This document shows positions 1 to 28,044 of a DNA stretch of 64,000 bases, one piece after another; positions within the stretch are counted from its first letter, which is position 1; the number at the start of each line of letters is the position of its first letter. The notes below the pieces were generated by a model. That model saw only the letters and a program-made list of their open reading frames with translations. It made no database searches and was not told where the DNA came from. The translations under genes and the position numbers were made by a program. The stretch covers positions 288,001-352,000 of the forward strand of contig CAWGMA010000004.1 of NCBI GenBank assembly GCA_963823555.1, read 5' to 3'. The DNA comes from Candidatus Eiseniibacteriota bacterium. GTDB lineage: Bacteria > Eisenbacteria > RBG-16-71-46 > CAVPCR01.

Positions 1-208
1 ACTCGAACATATTCGAGAGCGGGATGTGTCCGGCCAGGTTCCAGCGCATTCCGAGCCCGATGGTCTGGAATCCGCCTCCCACGAACAGGACGGCGGCGGC
101 GATCCGCCCGAGGCCGATGTTCCGCAGGGCGAAGAAGCCGGTGAAGAGAACGAAGGCGGCCAGGTACAGCCACAGGCTGACGGTGAAGAGATGAACGTCC
201 GGAGTCAT
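1..208 (-). CDS. ccsA: Cytochrome c biogenesis protein CcsA/ResC, N-terminal part (runs off window edge)
   Basis: Manual translation MTPDVHLFTVSLWLYLAAF...LGMRWNLAGHIPLSNMFE shows the GHxPlsnxxE motif. The ATG overlaps the resB stop (ATGA). Confidence 0.85.
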   Translation of the reverse strand, partial: MTPDVHLFTVSLWLYLAAFVLFTGFFALRNIGLGRIAAAVLFVGGGFQTIGLGMRWNLAGHIPLSNMFE

Positions 209-1557
209 GCTGCCTTCCGCTGCTCGATGGTGGCCGCGACGGCCTTGGTGATGGATGCAAACTCACGCTTGAATGCATCGCGGTTGCCGCTCGATATTCC
301 TGCGACGTACAGCGCGTCGGCATCGATCACGACCCAGAGCTTGCGGTGCGTGAGGTAGAAGGAGAAGACGAGACCGAGCGTGGCCACGGCGAAGCCGGCC
401 CAGATGGGCGGACTTCCGGGGCTCGTGCGGGCCTGGAGCCCGGTGGCGTAGGCCGGCGCGACGCCGGCGAGGCGGAGGTCGTCGAGCTTGGAGTCGGCGT
501 GCCCGAAATCGGGATGATGGAGGAAGAGCCACTGCCCCGCGACCGCCTCGTCGCCATCGTAGAGCACGAGGCGCGCCGCCGGGTTCCGCATCTCGTTCGA
601 GGCCGAGATCACGCCCTCGGCCGTCATACGGAAATGCGACACGAAGTCGTCGACGGCGATCTCCCGGCCATCGGAAAGCCGCGTGCGCGTCTTGAAGGGC
701 ACGGTCACCCGCTCCCCGCTGTCACCGGCAATGAGCTCGAGGCTCTGGAGCCGCCCAGGGAGAGCCCGGTACGAGGACTGATAGAAGCTCACTCCGTCGA
801 TGCGGAGTGGATGATTGACCGAGATGGTCTGCGTGAATTGACCGCGGTCGGGGTCCGTCACATCGACGGTGGAGTTGTACTGCATGATCTCGCCGCGCGT
901 GTTCTCCGGCACGTGGAAGCTCGCGAGGCGGATTCTGAAGTCCTTGCCCATGCCGGACCACTCCTGTCCCGGCTCCAGCCACACCCACTCCGAGCGGCCG
1001 AAGATCCCGCTCGCGATCCCGCCGAAGATGAGGAGCAGGAGTCCGACATGGGTCAGGTAGGGGCCGGTACGGGAGAGGCCGCCGCGGGATGCGGCGAGCG
1101 CCACCAAGTCACCACCAGGCGCCCGCCGCACCGCGAAGCCGCGCCGGCGGAGCGCCCTGCTGACATCGTCAGCATCGACACTCGCGCCGTCCGCGAGGGC
1201 CAGCCGCGCATGCTGCTTGAGGCTCATGAGCTCTGCCGGTGACCGCCGGAAGTGAAGACCGAGGGCGGTCTTCACGGTCACCCGGAGCCGGCTCACGCTG
1301 CATGCCACCAGGCTGGCAGAGAGGAGACCGAGCAGCGCGTGGAACCAGAACGACCGGAACGGCTGGAAGACTCCCAGCACGGCCAGGGTCTCATAGGTGC
1401 GATCTCCATACTGGGACCGGTAGTGCTCCTCGGCGCCATAGAACCCGACAGGGAACTTCTCGCCGAGGACGATGCCACCGATCGAGGCGATCGCCAGCGC
1501 AATGAGCAGGATGATGACGAACCTGGTCGAGTTGAGAGTCTTCCACAGCGTTTTCAA
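205..1557 (-). CDS. resB: Cytochrome c biogenesis protein ResB/Ccs1 (System II)
   Basis: N-terminal TM helices, FRSFWF, YLTHVGLLLLIFG, VNHPL...FYQSSY and C-terminal PG...W TM, all typical of ResB. Adjacent to ccsA. Confidence 0.9.
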   Translation of the reverse strand: MKTLWKTLNSTRFVIILLIALAIASIGGIVLGEKFPVGFYGAEEHYRSQYGDRTYETLAVLGVFQPFRSFWFHALLGLLSASLVACSVSRLRVTVKTALGLHFRRSPAELMSLKQHARLALADGASVDADDVSRALRRRGFAVRRAPGGDLVALAASRGGLSRTGPYLTHVGLLLLIFGGIASGIFGRSEWVWLEPGQEWSGMGKDFRIRLASFHVPENTRGEIMQYNSTVDVTDPDRGQFTQTISVNHPLRIDGVSFYQSSYRALPGRLQSLELIAGDSGERVTVPFKTRTRLSDGREIAVDDFVSHFRMTAEGVISASNEMRNPAARLVLYDGDEAVAGQWLFLHHPDFGHADSKLDDLRLAGVAPAYATGLQARTSPGSPPIWAGFAVATLGLVFSFYLTHRKLWVVIDADALYVAGISSGNRDAFKREFASITKAVAATIEQRKAA

Positions 1558-1619
1558 GCTGCCTGTCGCTCCGATGCGCCGGGTCCTTTGCTGCCCGGAT
1601 CAGGGTTTCGGTTGCTTGC

Positions 1620-2213
1620 TTACTTCTTCTTGGTCGGATCCGGATGCGCGACCTTGGCCACGTACTCGTCGTACTTGAAGCCCTTGAAGGTCGGGCTCTT
1701 CTCGTTGTGGCACTTGGTGCAGGCCGCGGCATCAGGAGTCACCAGACCGACCGCCTTGGCATCCTGCGTACCGGCAGCGATCGCCTTCATCACGCTCATC
1801 GGCGAGTAGGCGCTTCCCGGTCCATGGCAGGACTCGCAGGACACGCCCTCCTCCACCTTGAGCTTGGCCGAGGCACCGGTCGCAGCCGCCGTGGCATGGC
1901 ATGACAGGCACTCGGGCGACTCGTGGGCCGGCTTGGCCAGCTTCTTGTCGGTGGCGATGGTCACGGCCTTCTCGCCCTTGAGCGTCTCGAACGCCTTGGC
2001 GTGTGGGCTCTTCTGCCACGACTGGAACTGGCCACCCTTGGCTTCGGTCTTGTGGCACATGGCGCACTTCTGGGTGCCGATGTACTCGAACTTGACTTCG
2101 GCCTTCTCGGCCTTCGCCGGTTCCTCGCCGACGGCGGGAACAGGCGTGAACCAGAACGCCGCCAGCACGATGTACATCACGACACCCAGACCCAACAGGT
2201 AAGATGCTCTCAC
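1620..2213 (-). CDS. Periplasmic tetraheme cytochrome c (c554-like)
   Basis: Signal peptide; 4 CxxCH (CAMCH, CLSCH, CESCH, CTKCH); YIGxxxC, WxxSxHAxA and GVSCESCHGPGS pattern. Confidence 0.88.
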   Translation of the reverse strand: MRASYLLGLGVVMYIVLAAFWFTPVPAVGEEPAKAEKAEVKFEYIGTQKCAMCHKTEAKGGQFQSWQKSPHAKAFETLKGEKAVTIATDKKLAKPAHESPECLSCHATAAATGASAKLKVEEGVSCESCHGPGSAYSPMSVMKAIAAGTQDAKAVGLVTPDAAACTKCHNEKSPTFKGFKYDEYVAKVAHPDPTKKK

Positions 2214-2281
2214 CTTCAGTTACCTCCTCCTTAGCTCGGGGCCTTGCGGAACCCTCCGGCCCGGGTCTCAAGCCTGGCTGT

Positions 2282-2677
2282 TCAGCGCGCGGCCAGGCTG
2301 TCCTCCACCACCCAGCGCTCGACCAGCGCCACCTCATCCGGACTGGAGTAAAACGAGTTCATGCTACCACCCGGCCTCGACACGACAAGCAGAAGGCAAT
2401 CCGGGTCACCGGCGATGGCGTTCGGTGTGCCATCCAACCCATTCCCCATGATCTCCTCCAGCGTTGTCATGCCGTACTGAGCCGCCGGGTTGGCTCCACT
2501 GTGACACGAGACGCATCTCGCGTCGAAGATGGGCTTTATGTCGGCCTCGTAGGTCACCCGCTCGGGCGGGGCAGGCGTGGCCGGCAACTCCCGCCGCTCG
2601 GCGCACCCCTCGGTCAGGGCCGCCGCGGCCAGGAGGATCAAGAGGCTTATACCCCGGAACGCTCGGCACCGCTCCAT
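2282..2677 (-). CDS. Monoheme c-type cytochrome, probable lipoprotein
   Basis: Hydrophobic signal ending in LTEGC; TYEADIKPIFDARCVSCH; distal Met (GSM); ERWV end. ATG 2677 follows the upstream stop at 2680. Confidence 0.8.
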   Translation of the reverse strand: MERCRAFRGISLLILLAAAALTEGCAERRELPATPAPPERVTYEADIKPIFDARCVSCHSGANPAAQYGMTTLEEIMGNGLDGTPNAIAGDPDCLLLVVSRPGGSMNSFYSSPDEVALVERWVVEDSLAAR

Positions 2678-2679
2678 GG

Positions 2680-3903
2680 CTAGTCCCCTCCCTTGGGGCC
2701 GTGGCAGTAGCTGCAGAAGCCTGGTGATGAATACGCCGACGGTGTGTGGCAGGCGTAGCATGTGGCCTGACGATCGTTGTGCCATGGCCCGTGGACGCTC
2801 CGCATGTATCCAGGCTCGTGAGTCCGCGGATCGTTGCCGCGCCCCAGCTGGCGGTCCATGTGACAGGCGAGGCAGACCGGATCTTCGCCCTGCACATCAT
2901 GACAGGCCGCGCAGTTCTCGATGTCGCGCCGGGCCAGCTGCCCGTGTCGTCCACCGCCGGTGCCCACGCCGCCGGAGACCGCACCCCAGTCCGCTCCGCC
3001 GTGCCACTCGGGCTTCTGACCGCCCAGGATCTTCTCCGTGCGATGGCATTCGGCGCAGAACGTGGCTGGTTCGTGGCAGCTCTGGCAGTCCTTCTCCTTG
3101 CCGCGGGCATCGAGGCCGTGCTGGTACACGTAGTCGAGGTCGTGCACCCGCTCGAGCACCATCGGCTGGCCTTGCTTGGCCGCGTTCGGGGCATAGGGCG
3201 CGTAGTGATCCGCGGGCTTCCCCCCGGCGCGGGCCAGCACGGCTCCCTCGTGACATTCCTGGCAATCGGTCACGCCGGCTGCGCGTGCTCCGTGACACAT
3301 GGTGCAGTTCGCGGCACCGGCGCTGGCGAAATCCTTGTGGCGGTGGAGCCAGTCCTGCGTGTGCGATTCCGGCCGCAGATCAGCCGAGGCCGCATGGCAG
3401 ATCTCGCAGTTTCCCGCCGCCTGGTTCCCGTCGTGACACTCGGCGCAAGTGGCCATCGTCGGCAGCTGCGCCGCACCGGCGTAGTCGACCTCGGCCATGC
3501 CGGCGTGGCAGCGGTCACAGGTCAGCCCCTTTCCGATGTGCAGCTCATGGCTGAAGAAGATCGAGCGCTCGGCGGGCGCGAAGGCCGTGTAGTCGGGCCC
3601 GCTCTCCTTGTGGCAGAACGAGCACTCGGTCGAGCTCTCATCGTGACAGGCGTAGCAGGTCTGCATGTTGCCGAGGTGGTTGTCGGATGCCTTCTGGCTC
3701 GACTCGATTCCACCGTGGCAGCTCGAGCAATCGGCGCCGACATCGACGAGGTGCTTCTGGTGCGAGAAGTGGATGAGCGCGCTCTCATCCTGGGAACTGG
3801 TCCAGCTCCCAGCGCCGACCATGCCGGCGAGAACGAGCAACACGATCACCACGAGGCCGATCACGGCGTGGCGCCGCATCTGGATCCGGTGGTCATGTTC
3901 CAT
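2680..3903 (-). CDS. 14-heme periplasmic cytochrome c (c3/c7-like repeats)
   Basis: N-terminal signal/TM; 14 CxxCH counted; FSHxxH c7-type segments. Start overlaps the porin stop (TGATG). Confidence 0.92.
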   Translation of the reverse strand: MEHDHRIQMRRHAVIGLVVIVLLVLAGMVGAGSWTSSQDESALIHFSHQKHLVDVGADCSSCHGGIESSQKASDNHLGNMQTCYACHDESSTECSFCHKESGPDYTAFAPAERSIFFSHELHIGKGLTCDRCHAGMAEVDYAGAAQLPTMATCAECHDGNQAAGNCEICHAASADLRPESHTQDWLHRHKDFASAGAANCTMCHGARAAGVTDCQECHEGAVLARAGGKPADHYAPYAPNAAKQGQPMVLERVHDLDYVYQHGLDARGKEKDCQSCHEPATFCAECHRTEKILGGQKPEWHGGADWGAVSGGVGTGGGRHGQLARRDIENCAACHDVQGEDPVCLACHMDRQLGRGNDPRTHEPGYMRSVHGPWHNDRQATCYACHTPSAYSSPGFCSYCHGPKGGD

Positions 3904-5240
3904 CAGAACACCCCCGTGACGTTACGCCCGGCGAAGAACCAGTACGTGATGCGGGCATGACCGCGCCAGTCGTGCGTGTATCCGGTGAAGTCGGGCAGGG
4001 TGTGCAGGTCCTGGCTCAGGTTCTGGATTTCGACATCGAAGGATAGCGTTCGCATCGGGCGCAGCTCGCCGCCGAAGCTCAAGACGATCGATTCGTCCCG
4101 ATCGTCCTGGCCCTCGAACACCTCGAAGCTCGTGTAGCCGGCTTCGACCCGGGCCGAGCCCATCTCGGAGAACTGATGCCGGTAGGCGCCGGTCACCGCA
4201 TCCGACGCTCCCGTGTAGCCCATCCGGTGCGCGTAGTTCACGCTCCATGGACCACGCCCCGCACCTACTCCAAAGTACTGCCCGGAATCATCATCGAGGA
4301 ACGTGGATGAGAAATGGCCGAAGGCGCGCACCTCGGGAGTCACCACGTAGCTCGCCCGCACGCCGAACTCGTCGAAATCAGACTGAGTGAAGACGCTGAA
4401 GAGCGAGTTGGCGTAGATCGAGGGCGCGCGATGGAAGTACTCGAAATCGGCGGTCCATTTCTCTCCCGGGAGTGCCACGTTGAGCGCCCCGCTGGCGACC
4501 TTGAGACGCCACTCGGGAAGACGATCCACCTCCACCCGGCCGTACACCGTCGATCCCTGACGCCAGCCCCACGCCACGTCCGCTCCGTAAAGCTCTTCCT
4601 GGCCGTCGGGAAGAACGAGGAGTTCGTTGGTGTACTCCCCCGGCTCCTCGTACTCGAACGACTCGCGGTTGCGCCGGGCGAAGCTCACGGCGGTGGTCAG
4701 GTTCTGGGGCTGGTGAAAGGTGAGGCGGCCGCCGTAGGCTCGATTCTCCCAGCCCTGGACCTTGAAGTCTCCGGTCAGTGGAGCCTGGGCGCCGGCGAAG
4801 AGCTCGAGGGTGGCCAGGTTGCGGAAGCGGTAGCTCCCGAAGCCGCCGTCGATGAGCGTGTTGCCGACGCCGGCGAACACCCGCATGCGGCCCCCGCGGA
4901 GCTCGTAGGCGTGCCGCCGATCCTTCCACTGCGCGTAGAGATTCGTGACCCGGTAGTCCGAGGCGTCATGGTTCACGGTAGCCACGTCCTGGTGGCCACT
5001 CATGTAGGTATGGAGAGAGAAACGCGGGTCGCCAAGGCCCTCGAGATGGAAGATCCCCAGGGCCTGGGCCCGCATGTAGTCGAAGCTCGTCGAATCGGTT
5101 GGCGCACGGTCATAGCGGTAGAACGAGGTCGTGATGCGCCCGTGAAAGGTCTGCCCGCTGGCCGCCGGCGCGAGGAAGGCAACGATCGCGATCGATGCTG
5201 CCAGGCCGGTGCAGAGGGGGATGCGCGCAGAAGGGTTCAT
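3903..5240 (-). CDS. Outer-membrane beta-barrel (porin of a putative porin-cytochrome complex)
   Basis: Signal peptide (APAASG-Q), alternating amphipathic Y/F/G-rich strands, terminal Phe; GGAGG RBS before ATG 5240; coupled to the 14-heme gene. Confidence 0.75.
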   Translation of the reverse strand: MNPSARIPLCTGLAASIAIVAFLAPAASGQTFHGRITTSFYRYDRAPTDSTSFDYMRAQALGIFHLEGLGDPRFSLHTYMSGHQDVATVNHDASDYRVTNLYAQWKDRRHAYELRGGRMRVFAGVGNTLIDGGFGSYRFRNLATLELFAGAQAPLTGDFKVQGWENRAYGGRLTFHQPQNLTTAVSFARRNRESFEYEEPGEYTNELLVLPDGQEELYGADVAWGWRQGSTVYGRVEVDRLPEWRLKVASGALNVALPGEKWTADFEYFHRAPSIYANSLFSVFTQSDFDEFGVRASYVVTPEVRAFGHFSSTFLDDDSGQYFGVGAGRGPWSVNYAHRMGYTGASDAVTGAYRHQFSEMGSARVEAGYTSFEVFEGQDDRDESIVLSFGGELRPMRTLSFDVEIQNLSQDLHTLPDFTGYTHDWRGHARITYWFFAGRNVTGVF

Positions 5241-5442
5241 GACCTCCTCCATGGCCCGGGCGCATTCCGGCCCAAAGATGGCTTCCCAGCTTGGGTGAGA
5301 TTGCCCGGGACGAGACTCCTCAGCGCTGACGCAAGAAGGATGCAGCCCGAGCCTGTGGACCTTCGATACGTATATTACTTGATCATTTAAAGAGTTAGCT
5401 ATTTGAGTGGAGACCCGGTGATGATTGGGTTATCTGCAAGCC

Positions 5443-5546
5443 CGACATTTTGTCGACGCACGTGCCCGCCAGCCGTGACATATTGCCCGGAATGATGGGT
5501 CTGAGGCCGCCGTGACTTCCAAGCAGGGCAGGCTTGACAAATTGTC
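5443..5546. promoter_or_regulatory. Three GACA-N3-TG(T/C)C palindromes, candidate enhancer (UAS) sites
   Basis: CGACATTTTGTCG 5443-5455, GACATATTGCC 5477-5487, GACAAATTGTC 5536-5546, in the divergent intergenic region. Confidence 0.5.
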
Positions 5547-5647
5547 GGTTGGCTCCGAGACGTCCTGCGGTCTTGTCCGGCGGTTCCCCATCATGAAACG
5601 GAGCTGGACCGCCCTCCGGGCAACGGTGGATAACTTAACATTATATT

Positions 5648-5660
5648 TATCAATCGGTTA
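5648..5660 (+). promoter_or_regulatory. IHF binding site
   Basis: TATCAATCGGTTA is an exact WATCAANNNNTTR match with an AT-rich 5' tract in GC-rich DNA. Confidence 0.6.
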
Positions 5661-5697
5661 GATCATTGATCAGGAACCTCTTCGCGGGACAGGTGGG

Positions 5698-5713
5698 CGG
5701 CACGCAGGGTGCA
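5698..5713 (+). promoter_or_regulatory. Sigma54 (-24/-12) promoter candidate for the rightward cytochrome operon
   Basis: CGGCACGCAGGGTGCA has GG-N10-GC spacing with a GGCAC core, about 40 bp downstream of the IHF site and about 110 bp upstream of ATG 5821. Confidence 0.55.
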
Positions 5714-5820
5714 ATTGACCAGGAGGCTAGCCCCGGATGGGGCGGCGCATGTCTCGGACTCGACCGATCCGCTGGCCACCTGGTCAAGCGGGAAGCTGCT
5801 AACGGAGGGAGGTCGCGATA

Positions 5821-7503
5821 ATGACGCGAAAGTTCCGTCCATTCGCCCATCTTCTCCTGGCGGTCCTGGCGGCCACGACAGTGGCCATGTTCAGCGGCTG
5901 CGAGGATGACGATGACAATGTCGTGGTTCCGGAACCTGCGATCTCGGTCACGGTTTCCGCCTCATCCGACACGCTCAGAGGCGGAGGGACAGTGACCCTT
6001 ATCGCATCGGCCACGACCTCGGACGCGGCGGGGGACCTCACGTACAGCTGGTCGTCTACCGCAGGCTCGTTCTCCAGCACCTCAGAAGACACCACCACGT
6101 GGACCGGGCCCGAGACGGCCGGGATGTATGACATCTCCTGCATCGTGACCGATGGGAAGAACGCCGGGATCGGTACCAAGACTCTCGGCGTGGATACCTA
6201 CATGCCAGCGGATAGTCCCTTCTATCGCGGTGCGACCTACTGCCAGGGCTGCCATGACGGCGGTTCGGGCGGTGATCAGTACGCGACGTGGGAAATGACC
6301 GGGCATGCCAACGCCTGGGAGACCCTGAACGCGATCGGCCAGGGCCGGAACAATGTCTGCCTGCCGTGCCACACCGTGGGGTCGGTGGGGACCAACGCCG
6401 ATCCGGACCTCAACAACGGCGGTTATGACGAGACCGCGGTGGCGAGGCTCCAGGGTGTGCAGTGCGAGAACTGCCACGGCCCCGGCAGCGCCCATCCGGG
6501 CGACTTCGCCTCGGTGGACGTGGCGCTGGAAGCCGACCTGTGCGGTGCCTGCCACAATGGAGCTCATCACCCGACGTTCGACGAGTGGTCGGGGTCGCCG
6601 CATGCCAGCGTCATCGAGTCGGCGGCGCTCCGTGGCTCTTGTTCCAAGTGCCACAACGGGCTCGTCGCGGTCAACTACCTCGATGCTCCGCAGGGATTCC
6701 CGAATCCTCCGGATCCCACCGAGACGTTGCCCTTCACCTGCGCGGTTTGCCACGACCCGCACGGCAACGAGAACAATGCCTATCTGCGGAACGCTGCGGC
6801 CACCGATGTCGTCCTTCCCGACGGCACCGTGGTGCCCGAGGCGGGCGCGGGCCGGCTCTGCATGTCGTGCCACAACGGGCGGCGGACGCCGGAGAACATC
6901 GAGGACCAGATTGCGAACGGTAGCTCGCACTTCGGGCCTCACCACTCCGTGCAGGGCGACATGCTCGCCGGCACCGGCGCCTACGAGGATGTCCAGCCCG
7001 GATTCCCGTGGACCTCGAGCCGGCACCTGGCGGTGCGCGACGGCTGCGTCCATTGCCACACGCACGGGCACGAGGGTGAAGAGGTCTACACCGGACACGG
7101 CTTCCTGCCGACGGTCGAGGCCTGCGCAGAGTGCCATGGTCCGATCACGGACTTCACCGAGATCATTGCCAAGCAGGACTACGACGGCAACGGCCAGATC
7201 GAAGGCGTGCAGCTGGAGATCACCGGGCTCCTCGGGATCCTCAAGCAGGCGATCGTGGATGCCAGCTTGACGCCTGGCGCTGCCGATTCCCTCGCCAACG
7301 CGGAGGATTTCTCGGCGGCCGTCGGGGACACGCTGATCACGACGGTCGAGCAGCGGGAGGCCGGTTACAACTACTTCTTCGTCGACTTCGACGGATCGCA
7401 TGGCGTGCACAACACGACCTACGCGATCCAGCTCCTGCAGCAGAGCACGCTCGCGATCGCACCCGGGAAGTTGCCACCGGGGGCGTACATCCTGCGTGAC
7501 TGA
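5821..7503 (+). CDS. 9-heme c-type cytochrome lipoprotein with N-terminal Ig-like domain
   Basis: Lipobox FSGC followed by EDDDDN; S/T-rich Ig-like domain; 9 CxxCH; C-terminal DGSHGVHN helical segment. Confidence 0.9.
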   Translation: MTRKFRPFAHLLLAVLAATTVAMFSGCEDDDDNVVVPEPAISVTVSASSDTLRGGGTVTLIASATTSDAAGDLTYSWSSTAGSFSSTSEDTTTWTGPETAGMYDISCIVTDGKNAGIGTKTLGVDTYMPADSPFYRGATYCQGCHDGGSGGDQYATWEMTGHANAWETLNAIGQGRNNVCLPCHTVGSVGTNADPDLNNGGYDETAVARLQGVQCENCHGPGSAHPGDFASVDVALEADLCGACHNGAHHPTFDEWSGSPHASVIESAALRGSCSKCHNGLVAVNYLDAPQGFPNPPDPTETLPFTCAVCHDPHGNENNAYLRNAAATDVVLPDGTVVPEAGAGRLCMSCHNGRRTPENIEDQIANGSSHFGPHHSVQGDMLAGTGAYEDVQPGFPWTSSRHLAVRDGCVHCHTHGHEGEEVYTGHGFLPTVEACAECHGPITDFTEIIAKQDYDGNGQIEGVQLEITGLLGILKQAIVDASLTPGAADSLANAEDFSAAVGDTLITTVEQREAGYNYFFVDFDGSHGVHNTTYAIQLLQQSTLAIAPGKLPPGAYILRD

Positions 7504-7529
7504 TGCCTGACGGGACGGCGCGCGGTTTG

Positions 7530-7559
7530 GGCGCGGTCGCTCCTTCGAGCGACCGCGCC
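7530..7559 (+). other. Perfect 13-bp GC-rich hairpin after the lipoprotein cytochrome gene
   Basis: GGCGCGGTCGCTC-CTTC-GAGCGACCGCGCC with no U-tract. A second hairpin lies at 7603-7645. Confidence 0.55.
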
Positions 7560-7716
7560 TCGCCCCCCGGCGCCGACGACACTCCGGGGCCCTATCCGCG
7601 TCGGAGCTCGAGCCCAGTCTCACCGCGGAGCTGGGCTCGGGCTCCCGCTGTTAATGGGGCTCCTTCGCAGAGATTAGAACGCGCAGAGAGATGAGAAAGA
7701 GGAGAGAGGAGAGACG

Positions 7717-9159
7717 ATGAGCGTGTTCCGGCCGTTCAAGTCCCTGCTGGGTGGGTTCCGGGATCTGATGAGCCATGCCTCACGCCACCCGATCGGGCTC
7801 ATGGGCGCCAATCTCATCTTCTTCTCGGTTCTCCTCTTCATCTTCTTCCTGGCGGTCGAGCTCATTGGTATCGAGACCAATCCCTACATCGGAATCCTCG
7901 CCTATCTCGTGCTGCCCGGCCTGTTCGTCGCCGGCATCATCCTGGTGTTCGTTGGCCGCGGGCTGTACAGGCGGCAGAAGGTGGCCGCTGGACGACCTGC
8001 CTTCACCATCATTGACCTGAACCGCCCCGATCATCGGCAGCGGCTCAACGCGGTGCTCATCGTCAGTGTGCTCTGTCTCCTGGTTCTCGGGGTCGCTGGC
8101 TTCCAGGCCGTGCACTACATGGATTCGAGCGAATTCTGTGGGCTCGTGTGCCACAAGGTCATGATCCCCGAGTTCACCGCCTACGAGGCTTCGCCACACG
8201 CCCGCGTCGAGTGCGTCGATTGCCATATCGGTCCAGGCGCCGGCTGGTTCGTCAAGTCGAAGCTCTCGGGACTGCGCCAGGTGGCGGCTGTCACGTTCAA
8301 TACGTACCACCGGCCGCTGCCGAACCCCGTGCACAATCTGCGCCCGGCGCGCGAGACCTGCGAGCAGTGCCACTGGCCGGCCAAGTTCCACGGCGACCGG
8401 GTCAAGGTGAAGAAGAGCTACGCGCCGGATCATGACAACACGGAGCTGACCACGGTTCTGCTGCTGAAAGTGGGGGGTGGCAGCCTCGAATCGGGTTTCG
8501 CCGAGGGTATTCACTGGCACATGAACCTGGCGAACCGCATCGAGTACATTGCCGATTCGACGCGCACGGATATCTACTGGGTGGGGGTGACGAATCAGGG
8601 CGGTGATGTGACCGAGTACACCAAGGACGGGATCGATTTCGATCCCAAGACTCGCCCCGAGCTCGAACGGCGAGTGCTCGACTGCATGGACTGCCATAAC
8701 CGCCCCACGCATGCCTTTGAACAGCCCAACAAGGCCGTCGATCATGCCATCTGGTCCGGGGCCATCCCGCGCGATCTACCTTACATCCGCCGGGAGTCAG
8801 AACGCGTACTGACCACGGAGTACCCGGACCGGAAGACTGGTTTCGCGACGATTGCCGCGGAGATCGAGGCCTTCTACCGCGATTCGGAGCCCGGACAAGA
8901 TCCGGAAAAGGTCGCTCGAGCGGTGGAGAATCTGCAGGCCATCTACGGCCGCAACATCTTTCCGGAGATGAAGGTGACCTGGGGGACCTACCCCAACCAC
9001 ATCGGTCACGAGACGTCTCCGGGCTGCTTCCGCTGTCACGATGAACAGCACACCAGTTCCGACGGGCAGACGATCAGTCAGGAATGCTCCAACTGCCACC
9101 ATCTGCTGGCCATCGAGGAATCGAACCCCGAGATCCTGGATCGCCTGTACGCCGAGTGA
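7717..9159 (+). CDS. ImcH-like inner-membrane NapC/NirT-family multiheme cytochrome (quinol dehydrogenase)
   Basis: 3 N-terminal TM helices; NapC-type FCGLVCH...SPHARVECVDCHIGPG..K; 5 CxxCH plus 1 CxxxCH; 480 aa. Confidence 0.85.
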   Translation: MSVFRPFKSLLGGFRDLMSHASRHPIGLMGANLIFFSVLLFIFFLAVELIGIETNPYIGILAYLVLPGLFVAGIILVFVGRGLYRRQKVAAGRPAFTIIDLNRPDHRQRLNAVLIVSVLCLLVLGVAGFQAVHYMDSSEFCGLVCHKVMIPEFTAYEASPHARVECVDCHIGPGAGWFVKSKLSGLRQVAAVTFNTYHRPLPNPVHNLRPARETCEQCHWPAKFHGDRVKVKKSYAPDHDNTELTTVLLLKVGGGSLESGFAEGIHWHMNLANRIEYIADSTRTDIYWVGVTNQGGDVTEYTKDGIDFDPKTRPELERRVLDCMDCHNRPTHAFEQPNKAVDHAIWSGAIPRDLPYIRRESERVLTTEYPDRKTGFATIAAEIEAFYRDSEPGQDPEKVARAVENLQAIYGRNIFPEMKVTWGTYPNHIGHETSPGCFRCHDEQHTSSDGQTISQECSNCHHLLAIEESNPEILDRLYAE

Positions 9160-9182
9160 TGCGCTTGAGCGAGGAGAGGGCC

Positions 9183-11264
9183 ATGGGCTGGAACATGAGG
9201 TCGGGTAGGCGCCGCACGCGCACTGGGGAGAGGTCGGTGGAGGTCGGGCGCAAGTCCCCGCTGGCCCTCCTGCTCGTTCTTGCCGCCATGCTCTGGGCCG
9301 GTGCGGTGGGGGGGCAGCCGGCCAGCGATGACTGCCTCATGTGTCACGGTGAGCAGGGTCTCACCGGTGCCAATGCCGCCGGCCAGGAGATCTCGATCTA
9401 CGTCGATCCCGTGCTCTACTCGAACTCAGTGCATGGCGGCTTTTCCTGCGTCGATTGCCATTCCGGGGTGCCGGTCGAGCACGACCCCGATCTCGGCGCG
9501 GTCAGCTGCGCGACGTGTCATGAGGACATCGATCATGAGGTGCGGGCGAGCGATCACGGCAACGGCAATCACCGCCTCGGGGCCGGAGCCTGCACCATGT
9601 GCCATGGAGACGCGCATCAGATCCTGCCGGCGAGCGATCCGAACTCGCTGATGCACAAGACGAAGATGCCCCAGCAGTGCGCGACCTGCCATGAGAGCAA
9701 GACCCCGCCCCCGGTGGCCATGGGACATCCGATCACGGCCTATGCGCTCACGGTTCACGGTCTGGCCATCCTGGAGAGGGGCAATCTCGATGCGGCGAGC
9801 TGCACCGATTGCCATGGCGCCCACCACATCACGAAGGCTGCAAAACCGGATTCACCGGTGAATCGCTTCAACATCGAGAACACCTGCGGCAAGTGCCACG
9901 GCACCGTGGCCGAGGCCTACGCCAACAGCATCCATGGCGTGGCCCTGGCCCGCGGCGTCAGCGAATCCGCAGCGTGCACCGATTGCCACGGCGAGCACAC
10001 CATCCTCGCCCACACCGATCCTCACTCCTCGGTGTTCGCCACGGCGATCTCGACCGAGACCTGCGCTCGGTGTCATGCTGCCGAGCGGCTCACCTCCAAG
10101 CTGGGGATACCGGACCGCCGGGTCGAGAGCTACCAGCAGAGCTACCACGGGCTGGCCTCCGAGGCCGGGAAGACGACGGTCGCCAACTGCTCGAGCTGCC
10201 ATGGCGTGCACGACATCCTGCCCTCGAGCGATCCCCGCTCCTCGACCTACCAGGCCAACTTGCCGGGGACCTGCGGCAAGTGCCATCCGGGGGTTTCGCA
10301 GGCCACGTTCACCGGGCTCACGGTGCATGCCGGGCCCGAGGACTCGGTCCCCATCATCCGCTGGGTCGTGCTCTTCTACCAGATCGCGATCCCCGTCATC
10401 ATCGGCGGCATGCTCCTCCACCACGCGCTCGACTTCGGGCGCAAGTTCAAGCGCCACGTGGCCCGCGAGCGGTTGACGCGCTCCTTCCTGCGTTGGAGCG
10501 GGGGAGAGCGTCTGGAGCACCTCTTCCTGCTCGTCTCCTTCATCGCGCTGGCGTACTCCGGCTTCGCCATCAAGTGGCCCAAGGAGTTCTGGGCCGCGCC
10601 GTTCCAGTGGCTGGGCGGGGAAGGGTTCCGCGGCAACTTCCACCGCGTCTTCGCCGCGATCTTCATCATCCTGAGCTTCGAGCACACGATCCGCGTGATC
10701 CTGAAGCCCCGCGGACGGCGGCTCATTGCCGGACTGGCCTTCCGGATCAACGATATCCAGCATGCGCTCGGATTCATGCGGGGCAAGGTGCCTTCGATGC
10801 ATGCGCAGGATCCAAGCGGCTTCAGCTACGTGGCCAAGGCCGAGTACTGGGCGCTGGTCTGGGGTGGCGTGGTGATGTCGGTGACGGGCTTGCTCCTCGT
10901 CTTCCAGGACTGGACACTCGCCAACCTGCCGTCCTGGGTTCCTGATTTTGCGACCTACGTTCACTACTACGAGGCAGTGCTGGCAACGCTCGCCATCATC
11001 GTCTGGCATTTCTACTCGGTGATCTTCGACCCCGATGTCTATCCGCTCGACACGGCGATGCTGTCGGGGAAGGTGCATGCCGCTGGGCACGGGGCGGGAC
11101 ATGGCTCTGGTCACGGAGCCGCAAAGACGCCGTCCGGCCCGAATGTTCCAGCGGATTCCAGGCCGGCCGAGGGAGCGGGGCGGCCGGGAGCGGATGGCGA
11201 TGGTGGCGCGGGGTCGAGCCCGGGTGCCGCGCGGGAGACCCGGGCCCCGAGCCGACACGGATGA
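9183..11264 (+). CDS. CbcL-like fusion of an 11-heme c domain and a cytochrome b (FdnI-type) membrane domain
   Basis: 11 CxxCH; then ERLEH...LAYSGF, FHR, KAEYWALVWG, VHYYEAVLA...WHFY cytochrome b motifs. GAGGAG RBS before ATG 9183 (ORF track starts at 9084). Confidence 0.88.
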   Translation: MGWNMRSGRRRTRTGERSVEVGRKSPLALLLVLAAMLWAGAVGGQPASDDCLMCHGEQGLTGANAAGQEISIYVDPVLYSNSVHGGFSCVDCHSGVPVEHDPDLGAVSCATCHEDIDHEVRASDHGNGNHRLGAGACTMCHGDAHQILPASDPNSLMHKTKMPQQCATCHESKTPPPVAMGHPITAYALTVHGLAILERGNLDAASCTDCHGAHHITKAAKPDSPVNRFNIENTCGKCHGTVAEAYANSIHGVALARGVSESAACTDCHGEHTILAHTDPHSSVFATAISTETCARCHAAERLTSKLGIPDRRVESYQQSYHGLASEAGKTTVANCSSCHGVHDILPSSDPRSSTYQANLPGTCGKCHPGVSQATFTGLTVHAGPEDSVPIIRWVVLFYQIAIPVIIGGMLLHHALDFGRKFKRHVARERLTRSFLRWSGGERLEHLFLLVSFIALAYSGFAIKWPKEFWAAPFQWLGGEGFRGNFHRVFAAIFIILSFEHTIRVILKPRGRRLIAGLAFRINDIQHALGFMRGKVPSMHAQDPSGFSYVAKAEYWALVWGGVVMSVTGLLLVFQDWTLANLPSWVPDFATYVHYYEAVLATLAIIVWHFYSVIFDPDVYPLDTAMLSGKVHAAGHGAGHGSGHGAAKTPSGPNVPADSRPAEGAGRPGADGDGGAGSSPGAARETRAPSRHG

Positions 11265-14203
11265 TCCCCTCGAGAGAGATGAGTTCGGGCCGCAAACGGA
11301 GGACGCGCGGGATGTCAGGCAACTTACGACGCTTGCTGGCGGCGGCAGGCCGGCTTGCGGGGCGGCGGGCGGGGCTCGTCGTTGCGATCGGCGTCGCCCT
11401 CGGGATCGCTCTCCTCATGGCCGGAGCCGATCTGGGCGGGCTCGGCGGGGGCGCGGCGCCGGCCTCGGCGCAGAGCGAGAAGCCGCTGCCTCCAGGGGCC
11501 GAGGCCTGCATCGATTGCCACGAGGCAGGCCGGCCCGGCCGTCGCGTGGCCGGGGAGCCGCCGCGATTCGACCCGGCCGCCATCCTCGCTTCGCCGCATT
11601 CCGGGCTCGATTGCACCGATTGCCACCAAGATCTGGCCGGCGCCGAGATGCCGCACGCCGAGGAGCTATCTCCCGTGGCGTGCGCCATGTGCCACGACCA
11701 GATCCAGACCCAGTTCGAGGAGAGCCTGCACGGAGTCGCCGCCAACCGGGGCGACCCGCTGGCTCCGACCTGTGCGACGTGCCACGGCAAGCACGACATC
11801 CGCCGCGCTTCGGATCCCGATGCCATGACCGCGGTCATCAACGTTCCGCTCCTGTGTGGTCGCTGTCATCACGAAGGGAGTCCGGTCTCGCTCACTCACT
11901 CCATCCCGCAGGACTCGATCCTCGAGAATTACTCGGAGTCGATCCACGGCGAGGGCCTCTTCAAGCAGGGTCTCGTGGTCACTGCCGTGTGCACGAGCTG
12001 TCACACGGCACACCATGTGCTGCCCCACACGGATCCACGGTCTTCGATTTCCCGCGGCAAGATCGCCGATACCTGTACCCAGTGCCACGGGCAGATCGAG
12101 GAGGTTCACCGCAAGGTGATCCGCGGCGAGCTCTGGGAGAAGCAGCCGCACATGATTCCGGCCTGTGTCGACTGCCACTCCCCGCACAAGGTGCGCAAGG
12201 TGTTCTACACCCAGGGACTCGCGGATCGCGACTGCATGCGCTGCCATGCACGCAGCGATCTGGCCTCGGCGACGGGCCTCGAGGCCGCGGATCTCCACGT
12301 CAATACGCACGAACTTGCCGGCTCGCGGCATGCCAAAGTGGCTTGCGTGCAGTGCCATACCGACTGCACGCCCTCGCGCGAGCGCGCCTGTGAGACCGTT
12401 ATCGAGCGCGTGGACTGTTCGATCTGCCACAATGAGGTCGTCGAGGAATACAAGGGGAGCACGGCATGGGCAGCTGGCCAGCGAGGGCAGCCCCGATGCT
12501 CCGGACTGCCGCGATTGCCACGGCACCCACGGCACGCTCGGCAAGACCGATTCCAAGTCGCCGATCTTCTCCCGCAACATTCCCGCTCTCTGCGGTCGCT
12601 GTCACCGGGTGGGGGAGAAGGCGGCCGTGCGGTACCAGGGGCACGAGACCGAGGTGGTCGAACACTATACCGAGTCGATCCACGGCAAGGGGCTCCTGGA
12701 GAGCGGGCTCACGGTCACCGCAACCTGTGCCAACTGCCACACCGCACACGGCGAGCTGCCGGCGAGCGATCCGACCTCGACTGTGAACCGAGCGAACATC
12801 GCCGAGACCTGCGCGCAGTGTCACCGGGGAATCTACGAGCTCTTCACCGCAAGCATCCACTCGGCAGACTGTGACCAAGACCGACAAGAAGCTGCCCGAT
12901 CTGTAGCGATTGTCACTCGGCCCACACGATCCGCCGCACCGACATCACCGATTTCCAGCTCCACATCATGGATCAGTGCGGCAACTGCCACGAGGACATC
13001 GCCGAGACCTACTTCGACACCTATCACGGCAAGGTGTCGAAGCTCGGGCTACGTGAAGACGGCCAAGTGCTACGACTGCCACGGGGCGCACGACATCCTT
13101 CCGGTCTGGAACCCCAGATCGCACCTGAGCCGTGAAAACATCGTCGAGACCTGTGCGCAATGTCATCCCGGCTCGAATCGCCGGTTCGCCGGCTATCTGA
13201 CCCACGCCACGCACCACGACCAGCACAAGTACCCGTTTCTCTTCTACGCCTTCTGGGGCATGACCGCTCTGCTCGCCGGAACCCTGAGCTTGGCTGGGAT
13301 GCACACGCTGGCCTGGCTGCCGCGCTCGCTCCAGTACCGGAAGAAGCTGAAGCAGGCTCACGCCGAAGACAAGAGCAAGACCTATGTGCGTCGCTTCCCG
13401 CCCTTCTACTCGAAGCTGCATCTGATGGTGATCGTGAGCTTCTTCGCCCTCGCGCTCACCGGAATGACGCTCAAGTTCTCCTACACGGACTGGGCGCGGG
13501 TGATGGCGCGGCTCTTCGGCGGCTTCGAGGCGGCCGGCTTCATCCACCGCGTCGCCGCCGTCATCACCTTCGCCTACTTCGCGCTCCATGTCTTCGATCT
13601 CATCAAGAGCAAGCGCAAGGCGGCGGGTGGGCTGGGCAAGCTCTTGCTCGGCCCCAACAGCATGCTGCCGACCCTCAACGATTTCCGCGAGTTCGTGCAG
13701 ATCCTACGCTGGTTCATCGGGATCGGGCCCGCGGCCCAACTACGGGCGCTGGACCTACTGGGAGAAGTTCGACTACTTCGCCGTGTTCTGGGGGGTGGCG
13801 ATGATCGGCACGACCGGGCTCCTGCTCTGGTTCCCCGAGTTCTTCACCCGCCTGATCCCCGGCTGGGTGCTGAACGTGGCCACCATCATCCACAGCGACG
13901 AGGCCCTGCTCGCGGTCGGCTTCATCTTCACCATCCACTTCTTCAACACGCACTTCCGCCCGGAGAAGTTCCCCATGGACACCGGTGATCTTCACCGGGC
14001 TGGTGCCGCTCGAGGAGTTCAAGCTGGACCGCCCGCGCGAGTACGCGGAGCTCGAGGCCTCGGGCCGTCTCGAGAGCCTGCTCGAGTCGGGGCCGGACCC
14101 GAAGACGGTTCGCAGGTGGCGCATCTTCGGATTCACGGCGCTCGCGATCGGGATCTCGCTGATCGGCCTGATCCTCTACGCCGCGATCTTCGCCTATCGG
14201 TAG
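11261..14203 (+). CDS. Second, larger CbcL-like c/b cytochrome (about 19 hemes), split by about 6 single-base insertions as assembled
   Basis: ORFs 11261-12874, 12165-13988, 13588-14217 and 13985-14203 join into one protein with 19 CxxCH plus LHLM...[27 protein letters not shown]...IHFF. Frameshifts near 12463, 12864, 12898, 13048, 13730 and 13984. Confidence 0.82.
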
Positions 14204-14213
14204 GCAAGGGCGG

Positions 14214-15428
14214 CTAGCGGGGGCGGGGCGTGGACTCCGGCGTGAACCAGCCCTGGGTGGCGAGGCAGATCCGGACCAGGAACAGCATCACCGGCACCTC
14301 GATCAAGACGCCGACCACGGTGGCGAGGGCGGCTCCGCTCGACAGGCCGAAGAGCAGCGTGGCGGTGGCGATCGCCACCTCGAAGTGGTTGGAGGCCCCG
14401 ATCAGCGCGGCGGGCGCGGCATACGCGTAGCGCAGGCGAAGCAGCCGGGCCAGGGCGTAGGCGAGCCAGAAGATGAGGTTCGTCTGCACGAAGAGGGGGA
14501 TCGCAATCCAGATGATGGTCAGGGGTTGCGAGACGATGACCTCGCCCTTGAAGGAGAAGAGCAGGACCAGGGTCAGGAGCAACGCCCCGATCGTGACCGG
14601 GGTCAGGAGATGGAGGAAGCGTTCCCGGAACCAGCGCTCGCCCTTGGTCGCGATGATGCGGCGGCGAGTCCAGTAGCCAGCGGCCAGCGGCAACGCCACG
14701 TAGATCGCAATCGAAAGCAGGAGTGCCTGCCACGGGACGGGGAGCCGGCCGACTCCCAGGAGGAAGCCCCCGAGCGGCCCGTAGAGGAAGAGCATGGTCA
14801 GCGAGTTGAGAGCGACCATGACCAGGGTGAGGCCGTCGCTGCCCCGGGCCAGAGTGCCCCAGACCAGCACCATCGCCGTGCAGGGCGCCACCCCGAGCAG
14901 GATGCAGCCGGCGAGGTAGCTCCGCCACAGCGGCACGGCGAGCATCTTGACGCCATCGACGAGGACGACCCGTCCCACGCCGTGCATCGCCCCCACCGGG
15001 AGATCGAGGCCGAGCGGCATCTTGAGCGTGTCCATGGCCTCGGGCCCGATCATTCCGCGGAACACGGTGCCGAGGAAGAAGACCGAGATCGCCACCATCG
15101 TGAAGGGCTTGATCGCCCAGTTCACGATCAGCGTGAGCAGCACCGGTTTCAGGCTGCTCTCGCGCCGAACCACGGTGGCGAAGTCGATCTTCACCATGAT
15201 CGGGTACATCATGAGGAAGAGGCAGACGGCGATCGGGATGGACACCACCGGGGCCCCGCCGACGCGGATCGAAAGACCATCGAGCGTGCGGGCTACCTCG
15301 GGCGCCGCCTTGCCGAGCCCGATCCCCGCCATGATGCAGAGCACGACCCAGAGCGTGAGGTAGCGCTCGAAGGCCCCGAGCCCGCGGCCTGCGGCGGCCG
15401 GGGCCCCGCTTGACTGCGCCTTCTTCAT
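14214..15428 (-). CDS. acr3: Arsenite efflux permease Acr3
   Basis: [49 protein letters not shown]. Confidence 0.95.
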
Positions 15429-15880
15429 GACGTCTCCCTGATGGTGCGCGGCCGCATGCTCTCGAGCGAGTGGGGGAGCCCCGCCACGAAAGCGCGGATC
15501 TCGTCGCGCACCCGCCGGTAGTGATCGAGGGCCTTTTCCTCGTCGATCTCGTCCCGGGCAAGCGCCGGTGGGTCATCGAAACCGACATGAACCACGCGTG
15601 TGGCTCGCGGAAAGGACGGGCAGTGCTCGTCGGCATGCCCGCAGACCGTGACCACCCAGTCGAACTCGATCGCCGCCACCTCATCGAAGTGCTTGGCGCG
15701 CTGCCCCGAGATGTCGATCCCGGCCTCGGCCATGACGCGGACCGCACGGGGATCCAGCCGGCCGGGAGCGACGCCGGCGGAATGGGCGGCGATCCGCTCG
15801 CCATGCAGGTGGCGGGCGAGACCCTCGGCCATCTGGCTGCGGCAGGAATTGCCGGTGCAGAGGAAGAGGACCGTGAGCAT
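15425..15880 (-). CDS. arsC: Thioredoxin-dependent arsenate reductase (LMW-PTP fold)
   Basis: [17 protein letters not shown]-loop, [12 protein letters not shown] redox pair, FDDP; coupled to acr3. Confidence 0.93.
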
Positions 15881-15893
15881 TACCGTCTGAGCC

Positions 15894-16634
15894 CTAGCCC
15901 ATGAACCGGCGCCAGTCCTCGAGCGATCGCACCTGCAGGTAGACGTTGGCGCGCCGTTCCTGGGCAAGCGTCGAGGTCGGTGTCGGACCATAGTCGTGTC
16001 CGGGGAAGAGAACGGTCGATTCGGGTAGCCGGGTGAGACGCTGGGTCAGCGTGCGGTACATCTCGTCGGGATCGCCTCCGGGTAGATCGACCCGCCCACA
16101 GCCCTGGACGAAGAGCGTGTCCCCGGCCACCAGGCGCCCGCCGACGAGGAAGCACTGGCTTCCCGGCGTGTGCCCCGGGGTATGCACGAGCTCGATCTCG
16201 ACCTCGCCAATGCGGACAATATCCCCACCCTCGTGGGGGACCAGATCGGTGCTGCTGAGCCCCGTGACGAGGCGGATCCCACGGACCTCGCTCTTGTGCG
16301 CATGGGCCCGCGCCCCGGTGAGCTCGACGAGGCGGGCGAGCCCGACCACGGAGTGGCCGAACAGGTCGCCGCCGACATGATCGGGGTGGTAGTGGGTGCA
16401 GAGGGCTCCCGTGATGCGCATCCCATCGGCGGTAGCCAGGGCGACGAGCCCATCCACATCCCAGGCTGGATCCACGACCAGGCACTCGCCGCGTTCGCGA
16501 TCCCCGATCAGGTAGACGAAGTTGACCATCTGGGCCGCGATCGGGTCGGTCGCGGCGATCTCGCGCCCGCAGAGGAGCTGGCGGAAGTAGAGGCGGGAAG
16601 GTTCAGGACTCATCGTCGTCTCGGTCCTCGCCAT
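15894..16634 (-). CDS. MBL-fold metallo-hydrolase (glyoxalase II/ETHE1-like)
   Basis: THYHPDH, HTPGHTPG, GDTLF..GCGR.D, PGHDY. Confidence 0.85.
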   Translation of the reverse strand: MARTETTMSPEPSRLYFRQLLCGREIAATDPIAAQMVNFVYLIGDRERGECLVVDPAWDVDGLVALATADGMRITGALCTHYHPDHVGGDLFGHSVVGLARLVELTGARAHAHKSEVRGIRLVTGLSSTDLVPHEGGDIVRIGEVEIELVHTPGHTPGSQCFLVGGRLVAGDTLFVQGCGRVDLPGGDPDEMYRTLTQRLTRLPESTVLFPGHDYGPTPTSTLAQERRANVYLQVRSLEDWRRFMG

Positions 16635-16671
16635 GGTCTGGGGACGGGATCCGTCTCATGTTTGCCGTTCC

Positions 16672-17139
16672 TCACAGCACCCGTGCCGACTCGTACCGTC
16701 GCATCCGTTCCAGGAGCTCCGCAGGTGAACCGGCCGTGAGCAGCGCCTCCGCTGTGCGAGCATCCTTGAGCAGGCGGGCCAGCGCGGCCAGGAGCCGCAG
16801 ATGCTCGCCGTGGTTGGCGAGCGGGGAGAGGAGGAGCACCACGAGCCTAGCCGTGGCCCCGGTCTCCTCGTCCCACAGGACAGGACGGGCGAGACGGGTC
16901 CACCCGCACAGGCTCCTGGTGAGACCAGGCACGCGGGCGTGGGGTAGCGCGAGATCGCGCGTGAGGAGCGTCGACTGCTTCCCCTCACGCTCGGTGAGGA
17001 TCCGCTCGGCCTCCTCGGGACTCGCGAGCGCGCCGGAAGCGACCGCCCGCGCCAGCAGGGCGGAGATGACGGCCGACTTCTCCGTGCAATCGGGGTCGAG
17101 GAGGATCATATCTTCGGGCAGGATCTCCGCGATCGCCAT
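16672..17139 (-). CDS. Stand-alone PTS EIIA type-2 (PtsN-like) protein
   Basis: ERE..ST, LALPHAR phospho-His motif, HLRLLAALARLL; GGAGG RBS. Confidence 0.85.
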   Translation of the reverse strand: MAIAEILPEDMILLDPDCTEKSAVISALLARAVASGALASPEEAERILTEREGKQSTLLTRDLALPHARVPGLTRSLCGWTRLARPVLWDEETGATARLVVLLLSPLANHGEHLRLLAALARLLKDARTAEALLTAGSPAELLERMRRYESARVL

Positions 17140-17200
17140 GGTCACCTCCACCTCGGGAACAATATCGCAATCCCGGGCGGCCTTTCGACACTTCTCGTCC

Positions 17201-25572: not shown

Positions 25573-25660
25573 GGTCAGTACCTCGAGGTGGGTTGTCTTT
25601 GCTCGATTCCGGGATACAATCAGGATACAGAGGCCTGCCGGGTGAGGGAAATACCCGAGA

Positions 25661-27210: not shown

Positions 27211-27231
27211 GGCGACACAGCCCTCCTCTCC

Positions 27232-28041: not shown

Positions 28042-28044
28042 GTG

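Follow-up and report, generated by a model that had tools for sequence, protein, structure and literature searches.

How would a bacterium of the phylum Candidatus Eiseniibacteriota move respiratory electrons from its quinol pool to an acceptor outside the cell? The question is raised by a 14-kb gene cluster at the left edge of a 64,000-nucleotide stretch (hereafter the window, i.e., the whole stretch of DNA analyzed) from assembly GCA_963823555.1, contig CAWGMA010000004.1, positions 288,001 to 352,000. The source genome (G000; 4.62 Mb, four contigs, 92.5% complete; window at G000:C4:288001-352000) was compared with, among others, the nearest genome searched, a member of the same genus (G001). 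The cluster encodes seven heme proteins with 64 heme motifs, a predicted outer-membrane barrel and a ResB/CcsA pair. By motif count the genes carry 4, 1, 14, 9, 6 (5 CxxCH and one CxxxCH), 11 and 19 hemes, which makes exact the seven c-type cytochromes and about 64 hemes that an earlier, sequence-only reading had noted beside the barrel and ResB/CcsA; family matches and motif counts likewise uphold its list of parts for a quinol-to-surface conduit. A chance origin of these motifs is excluded, since CxxCH is absent from all six frames of window 15000-64000. The whole gene set stands in the same order in G001 (intact genes 68-93% identical), and short-read contig pieces identical to the window came from one freshwater, one aquatic and one sediment run. 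On balance, we consider that the cluster probably encodes a wire for outward respiration, which would carry electrons from menaquinol to extracellular acceptors.

In the mechanism that we propose, an ImcH-type and two CbcL/MtrH-type proteins would oxidize menaquinol, probably in different redox-potential windows if Geobacter is a guide, and the periplasmic heme chains of these inner-membrane proteins, together with a c554-like protein, would pass the electrons onward. A 14-heme protein would sit in the 22-strand barrel and span the outer membrane, and a nonaheme lipoprotein, extended on an Ig-like spacer, would reduce the external acceptor, e.g., Fe(III)/Mn(IV) minerals, humic quinones or a partner cell. 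The adjacent ResB/CcsA pair would add heme-ligation capacity. Geobacter is the model for binding, direction, acceptor and potential windows, to which the locus contributes observed genes, motifs, family matches and linkage, and predicted folds and locations.

The outer-membrane step would depend on two abutting minus-strand genes, one for the barrel (3903..5252, probable start 5240) and one for a 407-aa cytochrome c with 14 CxxCH motifs (2680..3903). An AlphaFold2 model of the barrel, made from a 22-sequence alignment (predicted local distance difference test, pLDDT, 81), has the outer-membrane barrel fold that modeling had been called upon to confirm, with 22 strands and no plug domain. A fold search with this model returned only outer-membrane barrels, all at 13% identity or less; the best match was FimD (Z 18.3, root mean square deviation (rmsd) 5.0, 333 aligned) and MtrB ranked 17th (Z 15.4, rmsd 7.2, 350 aligned). 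Membership in MtrB/PioB was rejected on the 22 strands and because PF11854 was found neither in the protein nor in the genome, and a TonB-dependent receptor was rejected because the model has no plug. The protein falls in no Pfam or NCBIfam family, none of the 32 relatives scanned (out of 127 aligned) reached a curated Pfam/NCBIfam cut-off, the barrel profile matched no sequence in the PDB, and matches in the ESM Atlas were to unnamed clusters only. Nevertheless, the profile gathers 828 representatives at E ≤0.001 (50% clustering level), including proteins named from Ignavibacteriaceae/Ignavibacteria metagenome-assembled genomes; since Pfam and NCBIfam miss the barrel, library-based surveys would undercount its family. 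The 14-heme protein has a single N-terminal hydrophobic stretch and a c7-like N-terminal half, and all 14 motifs are invariant among 116 aligned homologs. We infer that it is the conductor inserted in the barrel.

The pairing of barrel and multiheme partner extends well beyond the genus. Searched with a single protein, only 3 of 41 relatives yielded the barrel, and a profile search raised that number: among 206 genomes of the phylum 66 had some barrel match, and 25 remained under the threshold applied here (E <1e-30, which excludes the 41 genomes with a weaker best profile match), none of them in the phylum's two largest families (130 genomes). Twenty loci were fetched from these 25 genomes (leaving aside G000, G001, G005 and two with the barrel split over contigs), and in all 20 the gene directly after the barrel encodes a homolog of the 14-heme cytochrome that carries 11-13 motifs; the same order is seen in G001, G005 and the two split-contig genomes. 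Metagenome loci repeat it in 18 of 22 cases, some of them duplicates, the other four ending at or just after the barrel, and so do 4 of the 5 loci whose titles name Calditrichota, KSB1 or Cytophagia, the fifth being cut. The other components come and go: the 20 loci hold ImcH-type genes in 12, the 11-heme CbcL-type, the nonaheme and the c554-like gene in 10 each, and the 19-heme gene in 2. Barrel, partner, nonaheme, ImcH and CbcL occur together in five of the 20, in at least three different gene orders, so the linkage survives rearrangement. The nonaheme lies within 2 kb of the barrel in 13/13 genomes of the phylum with a close homolog (E <1e-150). A sample of 151 genomes from the phylum to which locus L010 belongs (Calditrichota) has the barrel in 83 (E <1e-30), the nonaheme in 56 and both in 54; in 28 of these 54 the two genes lie within 20 kb. 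The expectation of conserved synteny in related genomes thus held, above all for the barrel and its 14-heme partner. At L076:12276-19625, directly after the barrel and 13-heme genes, lies the gene for a 2449-aa cytochrome with 66 CxxCH and 10 longer motifs.

The candidate for the cell surface is the nonaheme lipoprotein (5821..7503, plus strand; lipobox and tip FSG-C-EDDDD), which combines a PKD/Ig spacer, an OcwA-like heme domain and a C-terminal helical bundle. Its best PDB sequence match is OcwA (6i5b; E 6e-11, and 1e-35 with the family profile), a cell-surface terminal reductase (PMC6703420), and its best fold match is again OcwA. It shares with OcwA-type proteins nine CxxCH motifs and a C-terminal three-helix bundle, at only 22% identity and a TM-score of 0.36-0.41. 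The description of OcwA-type proteins further includes His/Met and five-coordinate hemes; in the nonaheme alignment Met381 is invariant. Gram-negative nonaheme relatives of OcwA have been placed in a tree before (PMC7829351), and we infer that the protein is the surface terminal cytochrome.

How such a protein would reach the surface appears to differ between lineages. In an 18-row nonaheme alignment, the 11 rows from this phylum are lipoproteins whose cysteine is immediately followed by two or more acidic residues; as a rough background, such a tip is seen in 11 of 45 candidate lipoproteins of G000. The other seven rows lack a lipobox and end in a C-terminal tail of the TIGR04183/PF18962 (Por) type, characteristic of the type IX secretion system (T9SS); the nonaheme of the window has no such tail. 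This tail motif was present in 24 of the 25 best nonaheme loci of the Calditrichota group (Calditrichota/KSB1), the 25th running off its contig, although the query contained the tail and so biased the top ranks. The SprA N-terminal family was found in all five genomes behind L010-L014 and in G000, which has a SprA-like open reading frame (ORF) of 2238 aa (C1:1891942-1893324) and at least 150 TIGR04183-type tails, yet lipid-anchors its own nonaheme. In the nonaheme tree the 11 lipoprotein rows group together; as the tree is unrooted and the support only 90/89, we make no claim on the order of anchor and tail events. This swap of anchor and tail on one cytochrome family, with acidic-tipped lipoproteins in this phylum and a T9SS-type tail in Calditrichota/KSB1, appears from the sequences to be new here; a literature search, with most subscription papers outside its reach, found nothing joining T9SS with multiheme cytochromes, in extracellular electron transfer (EET) or otherwise. 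Tails also occur on other multiheme proteins, namely a 6-heme cytochrome with a terminal TIGR04183-type tail at G000:C1:989784-992657, which has no similarity to the cluster proteins, and tailed multihemes upstream of the barrel at L010:5057-8059 (7+2 hemes, ethylbenzene-dehydrogenase-type domain) and L077:6620-8302 (8 hemes).

At the quinol end, the ImcH-type cytochrome (7717..9159, plus strand) matches the NapC/NirT family PF03264 (E 2e-7) in its N-terminal part and, in the PDB, NrfH. The description of Zhong and Shi 2018 (PMC6295460), based on heme motifs and transmembrane (TM) layout, gives ImcH three N-terminal TM helices and a membrane-adjacent CX3CH with 5-9 CX2CH; here hydrophobic segments lie at 34-52, 60-78 and 110-128, and a CX3CH (CGLVCH at 141) accompanies 5 CX2CH. 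The CbcL/MtrH/MtoC type is described there as a heme chain of 3-23 CX2CH that continues into a C-terminal cytochrome b domain with at least three conserved membrane histidines, a layout seen both in the 11-heme protein (9084..11264, plus strand; 11 CxxCH; PF01292 E 2e-11) and in a second protein of about 950 aa with 19 c-hemes (11261..14203, plus strand). His 479, 520, 627 and 642 of the former align with histidines of an intact 19-heme homolog (P0050). The type is also given six (four to six) TM helices; a crude hydropathy scan after the heme domain finds 5 segments in the 11-heme protein and 3 in P0050. Geobacter uses ImcH at high and CbcL at low acceptor potentials (PMC4251993; 10.1101/2021.04.15.440034). 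ImcH-type genes occur in 44 of the 206 genomes of the phylum, and futalosine-pathway menaquinone genes are present in G000. A possible fourth quinol-interacting multiheme, in which cytochrome b is joined to nine c-hemes, lies elsewhere on the contig (G000:C4:98719-103357) with a 5-heme protein as its neighbor.

As assembled, the 19-heme gene is frameshifted six times and spread over three frames. A frameshift-aware alignment against P0050 (950 aa) passes through six +1 shifts (near 12452, 12867, 12895, 13046, 13719 and 13984), zero stops and 19 CxxCH, the number carried by 113 of the 116 homologs of at least 880 aa. Several of these homologs are named Ca. Eisenbacteria, in agreement with the lineage of the Fibrobacterota-Chlorobiota-Bacteroidota (FCB) type proposed before the source was known. 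Short-read contigs lack one base at 12901, 13046, 13731 and 13980-84 and so contradict four of the shifts; they are of low depth, aligned at 88% likeness and may come from relatives, and 12452 and 12867 are uncovered. The gene has 26 shifts in G001, where all 19 motifs are kept and its neighbors are intact; L055 and L057 carry unbroken 19-heme ORFs next to the corresponding cluster. Fragmentation in the G000 assembly is not confined to this gene either, as it extends to COX1 and a NiFe hydrogenase. The stop-free path, the uniform +1 shifts, the short-read contigs, the motifs kept in G001 and the other fragmented genes make assembly errors the most likely cause of the breaks. A true pseudogene was judged unlikely given the stop-free path, the +1 direction of every break and the short-read contradiction.

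Three further minus-strand genes and the start of a fourth complete the cluster. The tetraheme c554-like cytochrome (1620..2213; 4 CxxCH; PF13435 E 3e-17; signal-like N-terminus) is the putative periplasmic shuttle. A monoheme lipoprotein (2282..2677, within an ORF of 2282-2785; one CxxCH) probably starts at 2677, where a ribosome-binding-site-like sequence precedes the ATG. It aligns with L070:12619-14226 (41% over 107 aa, E 6e-25) and corresponds to a free-standing N-terminal domain of lipoprotein cytochromes with 11+2 hemes, which relatives encode at this position following the 14-heme gene. The resB/ccsB gene (205..1557; PF05140 E 7e-73) and the 5' end of ccsA (1..208; PF01578 E 4e-41; motif WGAFWSWD; 93% identical in G001) encode system II cytochrome c maturation, i.e., ResB plus a CcsA heme lyase with the WxWD motif; CcmE was not found in the G000 genome. 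Only about 69 codons of ccsA lie within window 1-208, the whole gene (269 aa) being C4:287399-288208, and a di-heme peroxidase-like gene (C4:286245-287354) comes after it, so the minus-strand run extends beyond the left edge of the cluster as described here and ends with the peroxidase. With ResB encoded at three loci of the genome and CcsA at four, the adjacent pair may be dedicated to the cluster; it was found in 0 of the 20 fetched barrel spans from other genera (4-20 kb each) and is not a general part of the module. Thus, of the "self-contained" cluster with its "own heme-ligation machinery" put forward by the sequence-only reading, the adjacent pair is real, whereas "self-contained" was too strong for one of three ResB loci that adjoins the barrel only within this genus.

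Several observations weigh against an outward wire, and the first of them concern direction. The same wire could run inward or both ways, taking electrons from Fe(II), reduced humics or conductive particles through the barrel to quinone via MtoC-like proteins and on to O2 or nitrogen oxides. A heme-copper oxidase in the source genome (G000:C1:542828-554217, subunit I in eight pieces) could act as a sink for such a flow, and beside it lies a pentaheme gene, presumably ACIII-like; the di-heme peroxidase-like gene at the end of the minus-strand run would also suit it. CbcL/MtrH/MtoC homologs, moreover, are found in both metal reducers and Fe(II) oxidizers, and MtoC is inseparable from MtrH/CbcL by sequence, with no distinguishing feature (PMC6295460). 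However, ImcH of Geobacter is linked to reducing acceptors of high potential, and the presumed surface cytochrome comes nearest to the terminal reductase OcwA; we regard inward flow as unlikely.

Nor do we find it probable that the cluster serves to reduce soluble compounds (e.g., nitrite, hydroxylamine, peroxide or metalloid oxyanions) at the surface or within the periplasm, in which case the nonaheme would be a catalytic enzyme of the NrfA/hydroxylamine oxidoreductase fold and not a mineral reductase. The nonaheme family profile does match NrfA and octaheme nitrite reductases as well (E 1e-11 to 1e-6), OcwA also reduces nitrite and hydroxylamine (PMC6703420), acr3/arsC-type genes and the peroxidase flank the cluster, and Ignavibacterium album, which has a similar porin-cytochrome cluster, is reported neither to use oxides of Fe(III) or Mn(IV) nor to grow on them (PMC4245776). 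On the other side, all nine motifs of the nonaheme are CxxCH, with no CxxCK, and PF02335 was not found in the genome, for which reasons membership in NrfA was rejected; OcwA turns over nitrite only about once per minute (PMC6703420), there is no acr3 match at the corresponding place beside the cluster in G001, and small soluble acceptors would need no dedicated barrel with a long-conserved 14-heme partner. Very unlikely, finally, is a periplasmic electron-storage or redox-buffering network beside a barrel with a transport or assembly role and no wire inside: the barrel has no specific solved relative, its best folds are usher and TonB-dependent receptor barrels, and no published experiments on its family were found in the literature searched, but it has no plug domain, is succeeded by one and the same multiheme family at every locus where the DNA beyond it can be seen, and keeps company with nonaheme homologs whose T9SS-type tails point outside the cell.

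The remaining points bear on how far the evidence for the outward wire reaches. The fold match to OcwA is distant, and residues 126-239 of the nonaheme model fall below pLDDT 50, leaving the region of hemes 1-4 poorly modeled. Its acidic tip resembles the lipoprotein export signals of Bacteroidetes but has neither the K nor the Q of their strict consensus; versions with acidic residues only gave lower surface levels (PMC5080379), and the signal itself is known from Bacteroidetes and is carried over to other phyla by analogy. The fold of the barrel does not favor MtrB above other barrels. For a mineral acceptor in particular, the reported failure of I. album, whose cluster is the most similar one, on Fe(III) and Mn(IV) oxides counts against the proposal, as does the activity of OcwA itself on nitrite and hydroxylamine. 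Only 25 of the 206 same-phylum genomes have the barrel under the threshold, 10 of the 20 fetched spans yielded no nonaheme, and, because related genomes are not independent, the linkage counts overstate the support.

If the outward wire is nonetheless accepted, a broader picture can be sketched, which we advance tentatively and with more doubt than confidence: an FCB-wide form of EET in which an unclassified 22-strand porin and a 14-heme wire feed an OcwA-type surface reductase, the latter reaching the surface by either of two interchangeable routes, lipoprotein flipping in Eisenbacteria and type IX secretion in Calditrichota/KSB1. Were this true, T9SS would be an export path for heme-loaded respiratory multiheme cytochromes, more than half of the sampled Calditrichota-group genomes would represent candidate electroactive bacteria, and uncultured sediment and freshwater FCB lineages usually deemed fermenters or peptide degraders would hold a complete route for respiration with external acceptors. 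The barrel family is common (25/206 genomes in this phylum, 83/151 in the Calditrichota sample) yet missed by Pfam/NCBIfam-based surveys. Because one cytochrome family carries either a lipid anchor or a T9SS-type tail, it could serve to test directly if folded heme proteins leave the cell through T9SS, and as all stages lie in one 14-kb locus, heterologous reconstruction is practical.

The divergent intergenic region holds a pair of GACA-N3-TGTC palindromes (5444..5546, no strand; 92 bp apart), possible regulator sites, with a one-mismatch copy at window 5477. It is the only pair within 150 bp among 41 genome-wide sites and is kept in G001 (91 bp apart), but it occurs in 0 of 20 loci of other genera and is therefore not conserved beyond the genus. 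The word "island" had been used for the cluster; as a claim of horizontal transfer it finds little in the composition, the GC of the cluster genes (0.62-0.67) being near that of the contig (0.67), and mobile elements were not searched for. Window 14214-17151 abuts the cluster with genes for an acr3-like transporter, a low-molecular-weight phosphatase/ArsC-like protein, a metallo-beta-lactamase-fold protein and a PTS EIIA-like protein. Further along lie a glycine-betaine-binding protein, an EgtB-like DinB/FGE protein, a B12 radical SAM protein and a trimethylamine methyltransferase (MttB) family gene (25661-42008), and then xanthine-dehydrogenase-family molybdoenzyme subunits near enoyl-CoA hydratase-like genes (44342-50766). 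The FlgD/T9SS-type tails reported from elsewhere in the window are real (24238-25746 and 51711-54737), the latter on a multi-PKD protein with a Por/FlgD tail. On another contig of G000 (C2:492969-503225) there is a second, unrelated multiheme cluster, heavily frameshifted, with 6-heme and 36-heme paired-CxxCH pieces, a barrel-like ORF, an NHL-like protein and cytochrome fragments, which resembles the PCC3 type.

The nearest described counterpart is the porin-cytochrome (Pcc) cluster of I. album, predicted in silico by Shi, Fredrickson and Zachara 2014 (PMC4245776), which comprises the porin IALB_1839, IALB_1838 (400 aa, 14 hemes) and an outer-membrane cytochrome with atypical motifs, IALB_1837. 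Pcc porins have 18-22 strands and their partner cytochromes 5-14 hemes (PMC4245776), ranges that include the 22-strand barrel and adjacent 14-heme cytochrome found here, and the place of the outer-membrane cytochrome, which some Pcc clusters lack, would be taken by two predicted lipoprotein cytochromes, whose surface location is read from their signals only. Both clusters thus have an 18-22-strand porin adjoining a 14-heme cytochrome of about 400 aa, then a slot for a lipoprotein-type cytochrome, a likeness in length, heme count, gene order and taxa between sequences compared by description only. In our cluster the third slot is filled by no more than a monoheme domain, and the pair has as further neighbors ImcH, two CbcL-types, ResB/CcsA and a nonaheme of the OcwA kind. 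Relatives at L070 and L073 show the I. album gene order (porin, multiheme, third cytochrome), and the monoheme lipoprotein corresponds to the N-terminal domain of the third protein; on these grounds the core of the cluster is probably a Pcc of the I. album type. Such porin-cytochrome clusters have also been reported in anode Ignavibacteria (Arbour 2020, PMC7399161), whereas the accessible part of a Melioribacter paper (PMC5492636) contains no mention of a porin, Pcc or multiheme. This resemblance, and the fact that ImcH and CbcL homologs had already been listed across FCB phyla (PMC6295460), tell against calling the system as a whole undescribed, as the sequence-only reading did; for this particular locus, the accessible parts of the Eisenbacteria literature on multiheme cytochromes and EET yielded no account.

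Like Geobacter sulfurreducens, with ImcH, CbcL and OmbB-OmaB-OmcB, the cluster combines these classes of inner-membrane quinol-interacting cytochromes with a porin-cytochrome module. It differs in having 5 CX2CH in its ImcH-type protein (6 in the Geobacter clade, the likening being by motif criteria and not by alignment), 11 and 19 hemes in its CbcL-types, 14 hemes instead of 8 in the partner, and all genes in one locus. With OcwA of Thermincola potens (PDB 6I5B) the nonaheme shares nine CxxCH, a c554-like start and the C-terminal helical bundle; the differences are the 22% identity, a lipid anchor, an Ig spacer, a diderm host and a porin partner. MtrCAB/MtoAB with MtrH/MtoC (Rhodoferax, Gallionella) likewise clusters an inner-membrane MtrH/MtoC-type gene with a porin-cytochrome pair, but the barrel here is not MtrB/PioB (22 versus 28 predicted strands) and its partner is not a decaheme; in the accessible part of the 2018 survey, no mtrAB/mtoAB was found next to imcH (PMC6295460). 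The cluster departs from these systems in uniting the pair with ImcH and two CbcL-types in one locus, in its OcwA-like partner, in its breadth over this phylum and the Calditrichota group, and in the swap of lipid anchor and secretion tail.

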